Assembly (NCBI GenBank): GCA_010093815.1
Contig: ML996579.1
From: Pseudovirgaria hyperparasitica
Taxonomy: Eukaryota
Length of the DNA: 64,000 nt
Strand: one strand, 5' to 3'
This document shows, piece by piece, positions 31,124 to 44,720 of this stretch. Position numbers and translations under genes: made by a program. Positions within the stretch are counted from its first letter, which is position 1. Each line of letters opens with the position of its first letter. The notes under the pieces were generated by a model, which was given only the letters and a program-made list of their open reading frames with translations, searched no databases and was not told where the DNA came from.

Positions 31124-34100
31124 ATGGCTGATCGTGGTCGTGGTCGTGGTGGCGGCAGAGGTAGAGGCGGATCTGATGGTCCGCCGCGGGGTGGTTTCCA
31201 AGACCGGGGAGGGCACCGGGGAGATAGGGGAGGTGATCGGGGAGGAGGAAGAGGTGATCGGGGAGGAGGAAGAGGTGATCGGGGAGGAGGAAGAGGTGAT
31301 CGTGGAGCGTTTCGAGGAAGAGGCGGGGATAGAGGCGGCTATGGTGGTGGTGGCCGTGGAGGAGGAGCAGGTGGTGGTGGTGGATCGTTGATCTTCCAGT
31401 AAGTCGACATAGGTCGAATGTGTATCCAGTGCTAATAAGTCTTGTAGGCAGGGTTCTATTACAGCTCCTGATGCTGGCGTCGATGCTCACGAGAACAACA
31501 TCGTGGCTGGAGAACTGTCGACTTCACTGTCGAAAATGACGATTGGCGAGGATGCCATATCTTTGCCGTTCCGGCCCGGCTGGGGTGATCGAGGGAGAAG
31601 TATTGTTGTTCGGACTAACTATTTCCAAGTAAAGCCGTCCAAGGATGTGGTTCACTACGCTTACACTGTCGGGTCTACCCCCGAGGAGACTAGCAAACGT
31701 AAACGGCGCCGCGTCATCGAACTTGTACTTCAGAAGCCGTATTTCCAAGGAGTGACATGGGCCAGTGATTATGCCAATTGGATAATCACTTCGAAGAAGT
31801 TGACACTGCCGAACGACAGAGATGCGTTTCCACTCGTCTATCACGACATTGACGAGGACGCATTTAGTGCTCCTACTGCTGGAGAGGCACCAGCCATTAC
31901 GGCAGCTCGTAATCGCCGGACTCGTCAGATAACCCTGCAACTACTAACGACACTGAGCGTCAACGACATCATGGGATATCTGAATGCGAGTACGGCTAGC
32001 ACGTTCTACGCGAACAAACCAGAGGCTATTCAGGCGATCAACATCATCTTGAATCAGCATGCGATTTCATCGCAAGGGGTTGTCGTTGTTGGTGGAAACA
32101 AGTACTTCCCAACCCAGGGTCCGCTCCTTGAACAAATGACCTTGAGCGGAGGACTAGTGGCCATCCGCGGCTACTTCTCTTCGCTTCGGACCTCAAATAT
32201 GAGACTATTGTTGAATGTAAATGTAGCTGCGGCTGCATTCTTCCAACCTGGCCCGCTAATCGACCTCATGACAGCGTTTAGACAGCACAGTTTCCGCGGT
32301 CAGGCGAGCCCTCAGCTCTACTCTGCAATGACGGACTTCATACAAGGCCTGAGAGTGACTACGTCGTACCTCAAAAAAATCGACAGGAGCGGGAAACAAG
32401 TCCTCGACAGCAATCGCAAGCCGATTCCTATCAACAAAATCAGGACTATCGCAAAACGCCCGTTCGTGTACGGGCCCGGGCCCAGGCTCGCACAGTCCTG
32501 TATGGATGCCAAGTTCGACTGGACGGATGTGAACGGAACTACCACCAACATCTCTATAGAGCAATACTTCTTACGTATGCATAACATTACACTAAGGGTC
32601 CCACAAGCACCAGCAATCAATTGCGGAACTGTCGATCGTCCAAACCTCATACCATCAGAGCTATTGACGGTCTTGCCGGGGCAGCCTATTGGGGGTCTCC
32701 TGGAGCCAAGTCAGACTGCAGAAATTCTGAGGTTTGCGGCAAGAAAGCCTGGTGAGAATGCCACTTCGATCACAACTCGAGGACTCCAGGTCTTGGGTTT
32801 GAACAACCCGACCAGCCAGCCCTCGGTCAGCAAATTTGGCCTAAGTGTTAGCACTCAGATGATCACGGTTCACGCACGCATTCATAATCCACCCAAGGTC
32901 AACTATGCTGGTAACAAGGTGGCTGAGGTTTCTGGAGCTTCGTGGAACCTCCGAGGAGTCAAGTTTTTCAAAGGGGCCACCGTCCCAAAGTGGGGTCTCC
33001 TGGTCCTCAATGACAAGAATCGGCCAATGTCAGTGCAGACAGCCTCTCTCATGGGCACGTTTTTAAAACAATTCCAACTATACGGGCTGAAGGCCAGTCC
33101 GATAGATCCGAAATGCACGCGCAGCACGAATTACGACTTCGGGGTCAACAATAGGAAACAGGGGGATGCACTCCTCAAAAACGAATTTGCCGGATTTGAA
33201 AAGGCAGGCGTAAGATTTATGTTGATCATCTTGGGATCTCAAGATGCTCACACATATTCCCGACTCAAATTCTATGGCGATGTCAAGTTTGGCATCGCCA
33301 CCCAGGCAATGGTTGGTGAGAAGCTCCTCAACGAGAGGGGTCAAATTGGCTATATCGCAAATGTTATCGCCAAGATAAATCTCAAGCTGGGAGGCATCAA
33401 CCAATTCGTGAAACTGGAAGAGCTAGCCCCCGTTGACTCCAAAACGATCGTGTTTGGCCTGGATGTGTCGCATCCCTCCCCGAAGAGCTCAAAGGGAGCA
33501 CCCAGCGTCGCAGCCATCGTAGCATCGGTAGACTCCTTTTTTGGACAGCTACCTGGCGACATTCGAGCCCAAAGATCTCGACGAGAGATGATCGACGGTC
33601 TTGAAGAGCTTGTTGTGGATCGTTTGAGGTTCTGGTCTTCGAAGAATTCCGGCGAGCTGCCCAACAAAGTTGTCGTGTTCCGGGATGGCGTTTCTGAGGG
33701 CCAGTATAGGCAAGTCCTCGAAGTCGAAGAAGCAGCTTTCCAAAAAGCCTTCGACAAGCTTTACAAGGTCAAACCCAAAATCACCTACATTGTCGTCGGC
33801 AAAAGGCACCACACTCGGTTCTACCCAACGAAGCCCGAAGACGGCGATAGAAACGGCAACACTCTCCCAGGTACCGTCGTCGACAGAGGCATTGGAATGG
33901 AGCGGGGTTGGGACTTATTCGTCCAGCCTCATTCGGGTCTCCAAGGAACAGTTCGACCTGCACACTACATTGTTCTCAAAGACCAGATTGGCTTCAAGGC
34001 CAATCAGCTCGAGCAAGTCCTCATCAACATGGCTCATACCTTTGGTCGCGCGACGAAGGCCGTCAGCATCGCCCCAGGGGCATACAATGCTGATCTGATC

Positions 34101-34232
34101 GCTGAGCGGGGTCGTGCCTTTTTGCACTCGTCAATGAACGATAGCAACCAGGGAACGGACTTCAACTGGCAGACCGCGGAATGGACTCGTGGCGTGCACG
34201 ATCGGCTCAAGAACACCATGTTCTACACCTAA
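31124..34232 (+). CDS. Argonaute (QDE-2-like) with N-terminal RGG tail, PAZ, MID and PIWI domains, 2 coding exons
   Basis: RPGWG..G..I.V.TNYF, RGYFSSLR, PSELL.VLPGQ, KINLKLGGIN, FGLDVSHP, FRDGVSEGQ, VVGKRHHTRF, QGTVRPAHY, RATKAVSI and VHDRLKNTMFY. Intron ~31399-31451. Confidence 0.97.
31232..31303 (+). repeat. 21-bp coding tandem repeat encoding (GDRGGGR)n of the Argonaute RGG tail
   Basis: GGTGATCGGGGAGGAGGAAGA repeated 3 times, followed by a partial copy. Confidence 0.9.
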
Positions 34233-41248: not shown

Positions 41249-41732
41249 ATCCGTATATCCATAGTTACATGGGAAAGCTTGGCTGCCGATGTTCGCCCAT
41301 GTCACCAACACGCACGATTTAGTATAATTAACATTTTTATCTATTACCGCCGTATAATATATATATAGCTATAAAAATTACTATATATTAGTTCTATATA
41401 GTCCTAGTTATATATCTATCCTCTTTTTATTACTTTATATTATCTATAATACCTCTAAAATTAAAGAAAAAGAGTAAAAAGAGTAAGTAATAGAGAGATA
41501 CTCTTAGGTCTAGCTAGCTATATACCCCTATATTTAAACGCGCTCTAGAAGGATATAGAGAGAATACTAAGGATCTATAGTATTATATATTAGTTATACT
41601 ATCTCTTAAATACTATATAAGCGTAGTATAGTAGTAGTATATAAGAATATTAATTATACTTAATCGTGTGTGTTGGTGACATGGGCGGACATCGGGCGCC
41701 AAGCTTTCCCATGTAACTATGGATATACGGAT
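41249..41732. mobile_element. Non-autonomous TIR element (MITE/foldback), RIP-mutated interior
   Basis: 41249-41340 is the reverse complement of 41641-41732, with 7 mismatches in 92 bp and the first 35 bp perfect (ATCCGTATATCCATAGTTACATGGGAAAGCTTGGC). The interior is extremely TpA-rich and has no ORF. Confidence 0.9.
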
Positions 41733-41842: not shown

Positions 41843-43199
41843 TCAGGTTTCGCTCTGCCGGTCATGTGTCTCCCAATTTATGTGGCCAAAGATATTTTGA
41901 GAATGCATCCGCATTGAGCTCCAGCTTTTCTTCGCCCTTGCTGGCTTCGTAACACTACTGGCTGTCTTCGAATCTACTCGAAGCTGAGAAGATGTCGATG
42001 TATTCATAGTTTCGGATAGAGGCTGACCCCAGAAGCTAATCTTACGAAGCCGCATACTGTGAGCTGGCGTGCTGTCGGACTCGACAAGATGAGGAAATAG
42101 CTTCGCTACCAGTGGTTTGATCGACAAGAGGCAAGCAAAAGCTATTCCAACATTGGCTTCTACAATTGATCAGGTCAGTGCCGCAACACCGGAGCCTTAG
42201 GTTGGATTAGCCTTGAAATGTAAGGTACTGACTGTACGGCAACTTACGAGTCAAATCATGCCAGACTTTGGCGGCGACGTCTACCATGACCACACGGAGT
42301 ATGCCGATAATACATACCCTTCAATATTTAGCAAATGACATACATCAGATCTGTTGTCATAGACTTACATTCCACCCAACGTAAACAACACCATAAGCCC
42401 TATTTTCTGTCGCCGCGGAAGCTTGAGCTGACTGACCAATGGCATTGGCAATAACCATACTACAAGGTCCAGAATAACATTGATTGGTGCTGTCGTATAC
42501 CAATATACCATAGCATCAATACACATGCCTGGTGTGCTTGGATTCTACATCTTCCGTATCGGAATACAAAGGAATACAGAGCCAAACACGCCCCAGATTG
42601 GAATAAGCGTCAAGACTATAAGTACGGCTTGGCACGTCCGACGAAAGATGATGACCGGAGTAGATGAAAATATACGCAGATATTGAGTAACAATTGAGGC
42701 TTTGGTTACGTTGACGACAATTTGATAGATCACGTTGCTGGCGATGATAAGCTAGTCACGGATCAGTATAGCTTTCGATGTCATCGAAAATCTTACCTTC
42801 GCCATAGTAGGGATTCTAGCATGGTTGTCCGCCCACTGAGATTCACCAATCCCAAGATGAACCTCTGTAATTGTCAACACCCTGTCGTGTCACATTTCCA
42901 TTTTATGGGATGAGCTCTAACCTGCTGCAACAACACCAGTCAAGGCAATCGCAAGTATCTGTGTAGTTCAGTAACTATACTCAGTTTATAATGTCTTAGA
43001 TATTACCCACCGTTGAGAAGACAATCATATAATCATCCAAACCAATAACTCGCGTGATGCACCAACGAGTATACCACCTTGCACCTACCGCAACCAAAGT
43101 AAGACCAACGCAACCGATTGCTGGCCCGAGAGCCGCCCATCCTATATCAGCTGGATGTCCTGCGATAACAAGAACAGTCGGTGGTTCTGAGTGATCCAT
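41843..43199 (-). pseudogene. PTH11-like (non-CFEM) rhodopsin-domain integral membrane receptor with two in-frame stops, 6 exons
   Basis: VGARWYTR...GLDDY, TKASIVTQYLRIF, FLCIPIRKM*NP...C, LDLVVWLLPMPLVSQLKLPRRQKIGL..LFTLG, LT*SIVEANVGIAFACL. Splice phases are consistent; stops at 42545-42547 (TAG) and 42170-42172 (TGA). Confidence 0.85.
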
Positions 43200-43970
43200 A
43201 TCATCAGCGCCAAAGCATCAGTCAAGGATAGTAGCCTTTCCAATCAGTGTGGGACACTCAGTTGTAAGATGCTCTGCACAGTACGTAGGCAAATGTCTCG
43301 GACCTCGCGGATGAAAATCCCCCTAACGTCTATTCATTGCGAACCAATAATTCCACCGCAACGAGACATGTTTTCTAAAATAATATCAGTGTTCTTCCTT
43401 CACCACTTACTAATATACTTTAGTTATATATTCTAATTCTCTGATGTATTTCTCTAAAATATAAGTTTGCAGATATAACAATATAACATTTCGATTGATA
43501 TTATCAACTATTCTTATCGAGCGGTTTCAAATAGCTTTAGGGTTATGCTTCTACTTTACCGGGACTGAGGACGTATTCTTAGCTTCGAATTTAGTCTTAG
43601 GTACTTGCTTTACCGACATATACGACAGCGAATTATAAACATTTGTATCCGAGTGAATTACGCTTTGTTGAGTCTCTCCGTGGACAGAGATCTACCATAT
43701 TATATGACGTTCGATTAACCACTAAGCTGCTGTACTATAGTTTTGCGCTATTCCTATAGTAGGCAGCAACTAGCTGTAGATAGAATAGTGTAAAAGTCGG
43801 TGGGACAAGCCATGCGCGATGATCCGAAGCTTCGTTTCGACAATTGCTTTGCCAAAGCCGCCTTAGCATATATCGTTCTCCTTTTCCTCCTCCCACCTCG
43901 CCTCGCTCCTCGACTCGCTCTAGTCACCCTTTCCCTCCCTCTTAGTACTTCTTAACACGCTAGTTGTTAA

Positions 43971-44720
43971 ATGTCTTGCGAAATTCCGAGCAAGATACAT
44001 ACAAATGCGATATTACCAGACAAACTAGAGTATCTCGGTGCTGGAAAATCTGCGGTGGTATATGGAATCGATTCTGAAAGGGTTTTGAAGGAGTTTCACG
44101 ATAGCGAAGGGAGTGGGACTGAGCGCAGAGTGTATCAGCGGCTTGGCTCACATCCAAATATTGCAAAGCTGCTAGATACTTGGGCAGATGGTTCTATTAT
44201 CCTCGAGCGAGGCACACCGCTTCGAAAGATCTGTCGAGCTTCTTCGTCGAACAAGATACCGGTTCTGACGAAAGTTCGCTGGCTGAGACACGCAGCTGAA
44301 GGCTATCGATATCTACACGCTTGCAATATTATTCATAGTGATGTTGGATGTAACAATCTGATTCTTATGGAGGGAGATCTGGTCAAATTAATTGACTTCG
44401 AAGGCTGTAGTATCGATGGTGGAGTTGCAGGTTCTTGCTATGAATGGTTCAGCTACTGCCCATCAACACCTAGGGTGAGTCAGCGTACAGATATTTTTGC
44501 ATTTGGTTGTGCAGTTTATGAAGTTATCATGGGGCAACCACCGTACCATGAGCTCGAAGCATCAGATCAGCGATACCTGCAGGTTGAAGAGTATTACAGA
44601 AACCGACAGTTTCCGGATGTTACAAACGTTCCTCTAGGTCCATTAATACAGAGTTGCTGGTCGGGCGATGTTAAATCCATGGACGAGATCATTCAGCAAC
44701 TAGAAGCTGTGAAAGATTAA
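43971..44720 (+). CDS. Small intronless atypical protein kinase (249 aa)
   Basis: G-loop LGAGKSAVVY, VLK, HPNI, catalytic loop IHSDVGCNNLIL, KLIDFEG, TDIFAFGCAVYE, CW. Confidence 0.88.
   Translation: MSCEIPSKIHTNAILPDKLEYLGAGKSAVVYGIDSERVLKEFHDSEGSGTERRVYQRLGSHPNIAKLLDTWADGSIILERGTPLRKICRASSSNKIPVLTKVRWLRHAAEGYRYLHACNIIHSDVGCNNLILMEGDLVKLIDFEGCSIDGGVAGSCYEWFSYCPSTPRVSQRTDIFAFGCAVYEVIMGQPPYHELEASDQRYLQVEEYYRNRQFPDVTNVPLGPLIQSCWSGDVKSMDEIIQQLEAVKD

Follow-up and report, generated by a model that had tools for sequence, protein, structure and literature searches.

Two genuine in-frame stop codons at conserved tryptophan sites in a PTH11-like receptor gene of Pseudovirgaria hyperparasitica, a very likely recent pseudogene

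We found that a PTH11-like receptor gene of Pseudovirgaria hyperparasitica is interrupted by two in-frame stop codons, TAG and TGA, and that both are genuine in the DNA. The gene is very likely a recently inactivated, single-copy pseudogene of a PTH11-like receptor subfamily that is conserved in Dothideomycetes, the group to which this fungus belongs. All positions refer to the window, i.e., the whole stretch of 64,000 nucleotides of contig ML996579.1 (assembly GCA_010093815.1) that was analyzed. The species is a mycoparasite of rust sori (PMC3317363; papers are cited by PMC identifier, each for the part of its text that was available). What was lost, by the rust mycoparasite or by this isolate, would be the sole representative of a receptor subfamily conserved in Dothideomycetes; as a pseudogene of a known receptor family, the gene itself matters little. 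One public gene model is corrected, the invented introns of which conceal what is in all likelihood a dead gene.

Gene Structure and the Two Stop Codons

The gene was rebuilt as a spliced frame on the minus strand of the window, with support from a profile match and an alignment of homologues. Its features are as follows.

41843..43199, minus strand: PTH11-like receptor pseudogene (PF20684, without CFEM), 6 exons, 366 codons
43011..43199, minus strand: exon 1, with the ATG at 43199; spliced frame, identical to the start of the public model
42922..42958, minus strand: exon 2; spliced frame and public model
42797..42864, minus strand: exon 3; spliced frame, joint 42751/42797 in run X3
42369..42751, minus strand: exon 4, with the premature TAG and the loop cysteine pair C160 and C175; fully covered by the X3 contig with no gap or variant
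42248..42318, minus strand: exon 5; spliced frame and public model
41843..42195, minus strand: exon 6, with the premature TGA, the last helix and the C-terminal tail; joint 42194/42247 in X3
42545..42547, minus strand: codon 167, a premature TAG where Trp is conserved; the change TpG>TpA is of RIP type, and the X3 contig reads it unedited
42170..42172, minus strand: codon 258, a premature TGA where Trp is conserved; the change GpG>GpA is non-canonical for RIP, and a G precedes the editable A
42137..42139, minus strand: codon 269, Phe, probable third lesion

The five GT-AG introns measure 52, 57, 45, 50 and 52 nt, and the coding sequence (1101 nt, made up of 366 codons and the terminal TGA) contains no frameshift and stays open for 108 codons past the premature TGA. 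This rebuild agrees with an earlier description made from the letters alone (hereafter, the sequence-only reading), which had noted an intact frame, five phase-consistent introns and ~110 open codons beyond the second stop. The 11 Trp codons elsewhere in the gene are all TGG, which bears on the idea of an altered genetic code. Assembly error was ruled out as the source of the stops: DNA contigs of two runs, at a depth of ~270-320, have no variant letter anywhere in the gene, the two runs being one sample, possibly the assembly's own source, and not independent. When all single-base routes to a stop codon in the whole coding sequence are considered, the probability that both stops fall on Trp codons is 0.21-0.32 under a transition bias of 4-10 (0.055 without bias); thus, their placement is not beyond chance.

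The receptor gene sits between the gene of V-ATPase subunit A (vma1) and an intronless kinase-like open reading frame. It should be noted that this frame (43971-44720, 249 aa, GC3 0.39) is covered by contigs of runs X3 and X4 that extend beyond 44800, and that the receptor gene and the kinase-like frame make up an island of lower GC, flanked by vma1 and the Tau95/TFC1 gene. Elsewhere in the window, a long open frame at 31413-34232 reads as Argonaute-like by eye.

Comparison with Intact Relatives

Exon 4 alone matches the profile PF20684 (Fung_rhodopsin) with E=4e-33 and 115 bits, compared to a curated cut-off of 27. The subfamily was defined as those 77 proteins, out of 166 homologues, that are 36% or more identical across 100 columns or more. 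Among the subfamily proteins with a residue at the site, codon 167 is Trp in 70/75 and codon 258 in 61/70, so that the sequence-only reading had correctly placed the TAG and the TGA at conserved tryptophans. The two loop cysteines, C160 and C175, are both present; these sites are Cys in 76/76 and 75/75, respectively. In the WSxxE region S259 and E262 are retained; both conserved tryptophans are stops, and the cysteine at position 269, found in 67 of 68 subfamily proteins, is replaced by Phe. A seven-helix open frame is interrupted at codons 167 and 258, and the replacement at codon 269 is a probable third lesion, so the two stops are probably not the only visible lesions, as had been thought. 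The motif ACLL, taken earlier for a departure from the usual ACLP, was rejected as a lesion; it is the usual state of the subfamily (Leu in 43/69, Pro in 6/69).

The nearest named relative is the Lepidopterella palustris protein K432DRAFT_296485, with 51% identity over the core; the closest proteins are ~50% identical, and further near relatives belong to Phyllosticta, Cercospora, Aplosporella and Saxophila. At conserved columns the gene differs in 7 of 62, two of which are the stops (5/60 without stops), and 22 homologues differ at 0-20% of them. The root-to-tip length is 2.59, within the subfamily range of 2.25-3.28 (FastTree, 40 hand-picked rows). The loss is very likely recent, because the frame has no frameshift, conservation is near that of intact relatives, and the branch is not long.

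We also retrieved 80 related loci with search patterns that excluded both tryptophans. Codon 167 is TGG in all 71 readable loci. At codon 258, which could be read in 60 loci, 57 have TGG and 3 have Phe; neither codon is ever a stop. These loci include many near-duplicates and are all distant (best segments 25-51% identical), so that a stop of old date, conserved among them, is excluded, but a recent one is not. Among the 80 loci, with flanks of up to 3 kb, none matched the neighborhood of vma1, the kinase and TFC1. Within the same genome the gene is single-copy, its paralogues being at most 35% identical, and none of 29 paralogous loci (the others among the best 30 of 106 PF20684 matches; 29 and 22 aligned at the two codons) has a stop at either Trp site. 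A literature search, with subscription papers mostly outside its coverage, returned no report of a PTH11 pseudogene.

Transcripts and the Public Gene Model

Four sequencing runs cover the region and none is labelled RNA; runs X3 and X4 were treated as RNA because their contigs skip GT-AG introns (in vma1 and, for X3, also in the receptor gene). One X3 contig of 740 nt at a depth of 4.8 covers the receptor gene, and its joints 42751/42797 and 42194/42247 correspond to introns 3 and 5. Between 42247 and 42751 it has no gap and 0 variant letters: the TAG is unedited and intron 4 is retained. Intron 2 is retained as well, according to the depth table. The first 108 letters of the contig lie at ~42087-42194, as placed by the joint and the depth tables, and no difference is listed at 42170, in the TGA; all 15 listed differences, including 4 T>C, fall within an adjoining MITE. 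The locus still gives rise to a weak, partly spliced transcript, which the X3 contig shows unedited. This evidence comes from one shallow contig of one of two RNA-like runs, with unlabelled tissue; contigs of the other run, X4, do not cover the receptor gene, and this counts neither for nor against editing. Since contigs drop rare variants and the tissue is unlabelled, sexual-stage editing would escape the X3 contig; it shows that an unedited transcript exists, and the absence of editing does not follow from it.

The public model EJ05DRAFT_503727 of P. hyperparasitica (P0001, 328 aa) is the same locus and is letter-identical to our frame outside two skips.

42490..42567, minus strand: 78-nt "intron" of the public model that takes out the TAG and both loop cysteines; unspliced in the X3 contig
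42160..42247, minus strand: 88-nt intron 5 of the public model, with which the TGA disappears along with 12 codons; the intron spliced in X3 is the 52-nt one

If the model were real, splicing would remove both stops, the TAG with the 78-nt intron and the TGA through a downstream acceptor. Both extra introns are GT-AG and keep the frame, and a branch-like site CTGAC lies 11 nt before the downstream TAG acceptor, the acceptor in use ending in AAG. However, the X3 contig keeps 42490-42567 and splices the 52-nt intron 5. The product would lack both loop cysteines and the start of the last helix and, because of the near-invariance of those cysteines and the loss of that helix start, would hardly be a working receptor. 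We regard such stop-skipping splicing as very unlikely.

The most probable course of events is inactivation. As seen in the DNA, the receptor frame is interrupted by two G-to-A transitions, each in a Trp codon. The first stop would leave a fragment of 166 residues, truncated after helix 4 and without the last three helices, and the truncated transcript would probably be degraded by nonsense-mediated decay. Following gene death or relaxed selection, the second stop and the Cys-to-Phe change would have accumulated as neutral changes. The TAG may stem from RIP leaking from the neighboring MITE, while the TGA and the Cys-to-Phe change look like ordinary mutation. Plain pseudogenisation, which the sequence-only reading had rated at least as likely as editing, is favored by the lack of a stop in any relative, by the probable third lesion and by the unedited X3 contig.

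It could be argued that ribosomes read through both stops, or that the 166-residue product is itself functional, given the low-level transcription of the locus. A C directly after the stop is a feature of leaky stop codons; here, neither stop is followed by C (UAG-A, UGA-U), two leaks would multiply, and the transcript seen in X3 retains introns 2 and 4. Past the first stop there is no sign, one way or the other, of faster decay. It is very hard to credit this explanation over pseudogenisation.

Editing of the Stop Codons

The sequence-only reading had put forward an editing-dependent receptor. In such a scheme a Tad2-Tad3-cofactor complex would deaminate both stops in the sexual stage, and the full seven-helix protein would exist only in fruiting tissue. 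A single A-to-I edit per stop would yield Trp, the rest of the frame is well preserved, and in the public model false introns mask both stops, as was the case with the stop of PUK1 before editing was discovered (PMC7306014). The edited A of the TAG has U before it and G after it; the feature of UAG with U before the edited A, known from PSC genes, is thus present at codon 167. It is absent at codon 258, where a UGA with G at position -1 would have to be edited efficiently. In three Sordariomycetes the frequency of editing at TA exceeded that at AA, GA or CA by a factor of 21.8-233 (PMC13431901). The premature-stop corrections of Fusarium graminearum involve 71 PSC genes, all treated as TAG sites, and 6 of the 71 have two sites (PMC10776026, in the part available); TGA or UGA as a whole word has 0 occurrences in the text of that paper. 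Moreover, neither of the two A's lies stably in a hairpin loop: their pairing probabilities are 0.59-0.99 and 0.32-0.95, depending on the size of the folding window, with z-scores of -0.01 and +1.26.

The taxonomic distribution is also of interest. Single species outside Sordariomycetes carry premature stops at PSC sites (PMC10776026), which is a point for editing, and a supplement file of that paper, in the part available, has no match to P. hyperparasitica or its family. According to PMC11156358, Sordariomycetes and Pyronema edit mRNA, and Aspergillus nidulans and Botrytis cinerea do not; the available parts of the cited literature describe it only from Sordariomycetes and Pezizomycetes. Whether pseudothecia-forming fungi edit mRNA was named as an untested question (PMC7306014), and PMC13123824, in the part available, reports no editing in Dothideomycetes or pseudothecia. 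Our literature search, from which subscription papers were mostly absent, likewise found no such report. Neither the relatives (0/71 and 0/60 at the two codons) nor the 29 paralogous loci have a stop at either site.

Editing requires Ame1 with MV at positions 500-501, replacing the ancestral KN (PMC11087585). P. hyperparasitica is listed with two Ame1 orthologues, as are many Dothideomycetes (supplement of PMC11087585), and lineages with duplicated Ame1 were flagged by the authors as worth testing (PMC11087585); for this reason, the duplication is the best point in favor of editing. We found three DUF726 genes in the genome, two of them Ame1-like (L013 on contig C2; L015/L016 on contig C21) and the third more distant (L014/L017). 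The two copies read RS and KS at the inferred MV site, and none of the 118 homologues that could be read, among 120 listed, has MV; positions 500-501 were located indirectly, by their spacing from the catalytic Ser and by the ancestral Lys (85/118 homologues). Thus, the Ame1 copies lack MV, and the presence of two is common among the listed Dothideomycetes.

The genome contains a gene with PF00145 (L044), the spliced frame of which is open (~645 aa), and another with an open spliced frame of ~855 aa; on the basis of motifs, we label these RID-like and AMA1-like, respectively. In Fusarium, RID and AMA1 need stop correction by editing (PMC11156358); the open frames found here count in favor of pseudogenisation of the receptor. 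The AMA1-like gene includes a candidate AT-AC intron of 49 nt (L080:2540-2588, contig C2, minus strand), with an ATATGT start, a branch-like site CTGAC and a TATAC end; it restores the conserved PFR/VLDAP join, whereas frame-keeping GT-AG alternatives delete or add residues. A MAT1-1-1 alpha-box gene with an open frame was found on contig C9 (L084), with another ORF just upstream. In a search for MAT1-2-1, at least 6 HMG matches were obtained, all of them away from the MAT contig, and heterothallism is only suggested. P. hyperparasitica is described only from the asexual form (PMC3317363, in the part available). The presence of the MAT1-1-1 and RID-like genes makes a sexual cycle plausible, a point in favor of editing.

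On balance, with the X3 contig unedited, a UGA as the second stop, Ame1-like genes without MV, no relative with a stop and a likely third lesion at codon 269, the proposal of an editing-gated receptor found no support in our tests, in which the RNA was of unlabelled tissue, and we consider it very improbable. The broader claim, that a Dothideomycete independently evolved sexual-stage A-to-I editing through a non-MV Ame1 copy that corrects both a UAG and a disfavored UGA, is no less far-fetched. If true, fungal mRNA editing would have arisen a third time, and this would be, relative to the cited literature, the first correction of a UGA; it would also answer whether pseudothecia-forming fungi edit mRNA, as asked in PMC7306014.

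RIP and the Adjoining MITE

Two features next to the gene are relevant to the origin of the stops.

41249..41732, no strand assigned: MITE-like repeat of 484 bp at a distance of 111 nt from the terminal stop; its inverted ends measure ~100-120 bp, and its interior is rich in TpA and poor in CpA/TpG
43380..43620, no strand assigned: AT-rich, RIP-like, TpA-enriched single-copy patch, the approximate borders of which lie 180 and 420 nt upstream of the ATG

The MITE family has 91 matches in the genome, counting both arms; 25 loci were retrieved (L018-L042), 17 of which have alignments of at least 400 nt. The GC-rich ends of ~100 bp are conserved, the interior is almost without CpA/TpG, and there are at least three subfamilies. 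Full-length copies begin and end with AT and have no other common target duplication; AT may be the target duplication, as is typical of ISL2EU/Pangu-type elements. The nearest copy is 98.6% identical, with 5 transitions (3 of them CpA) and 0 transversions, and this identity points to recent movement. In 16 copies compared to the most GC-rich one, changes are distributed as CpA 142, CpG 172, CpT 164 and CpC 130, with no excess of CpA; the context is uninformative overall because the interior is already depleted. The upstream patch has a single genome match and was rejected as a current repeat; perhaps it is an old RIP relic in the promoter.

RIP leaking from this MITE could have made both stops in one round, which would be a version of pseudogenisation rather than an alternative to it. 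Both stops are C-to-T changes and share one strand. At 438 and 813 nt from the MITE, they fall within the leak range of 930 bp cited for Neurospora (PMC2973834), and the whole single-copy gene is at 111-1470 nt from this multi-copy element. The nearest copy differs by transitions only, and the PF00145 gene, with its motif-based RID label, would supply the methyltransferase. On the other hand, the TGA change is of the CpC type, the coding sequence has TpA/ApT of 0.68 and (CpA+TpG)/(ApC+GpT) of 1.34, like unaffected neighbors, and the 16 copies have no CpA excess. The Cys-to-Phe difference at codon 269 is a transversion; thus, one of the three lesions fits CpA>TpA, and CpA/TpG are not depleted. 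A duplicate of the receptor gene as a direct trigger of RIP was searched for in the genome and was not found.

The earlier description of the gene as a casualty of RIP therefore stands in part: the TAG is in a CpA context and within leak range, whereas the CpC-type TGA, the transversion, the single-copy state and the normal indices do not conform. As the origin of one stop, RIP leakage is a reasonable guess; for both stops the case is weak, and a single round that made both is rather unlikely.

Comparison with Known Systems

The gene shares with PTH11-like PF20684 proteins the domain match, the loop cysteine pair, the WSxxE motif, the A(S/C)LL motif and a similar length; unlike these relatives, it has two in-frame stops and a Phe at the near-invariant Cys269. 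Magnaporthe Pth11 itself has a CFEM domain, whereas here CFEM is absent, with ~20 residues ahead of the first helix.

The PSC genes of Fusarium graminearum (PUK1/PSC03, AMD1, FgRID, FgAMA1; PMC10776026, PMC11156358) are similar in having a stop at an ancestral Trp, an open frame and a false intron in the annotation. However, these are UAG stops edited in Sordariomycete perithecia, whereas the receptor gene has a UGA as one of its stops and belongs to a Dothideomycete with non-MV Ame1 copies; the PSC genes are edited, and here no editing was seen (one X3 contig) and no relative has the same stops.

The RIP alleles of AvrLm6 in Leptosphaeria maculans (PMC2973834) likewise concern a single-copy Dothideomycete gene with premature stops near a RIP-affected repeat. 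Those alleles have 4-6 stops and many CpA/TpG changes, whereas the receptor gene has one CpA-type stop and normal RIP indices.
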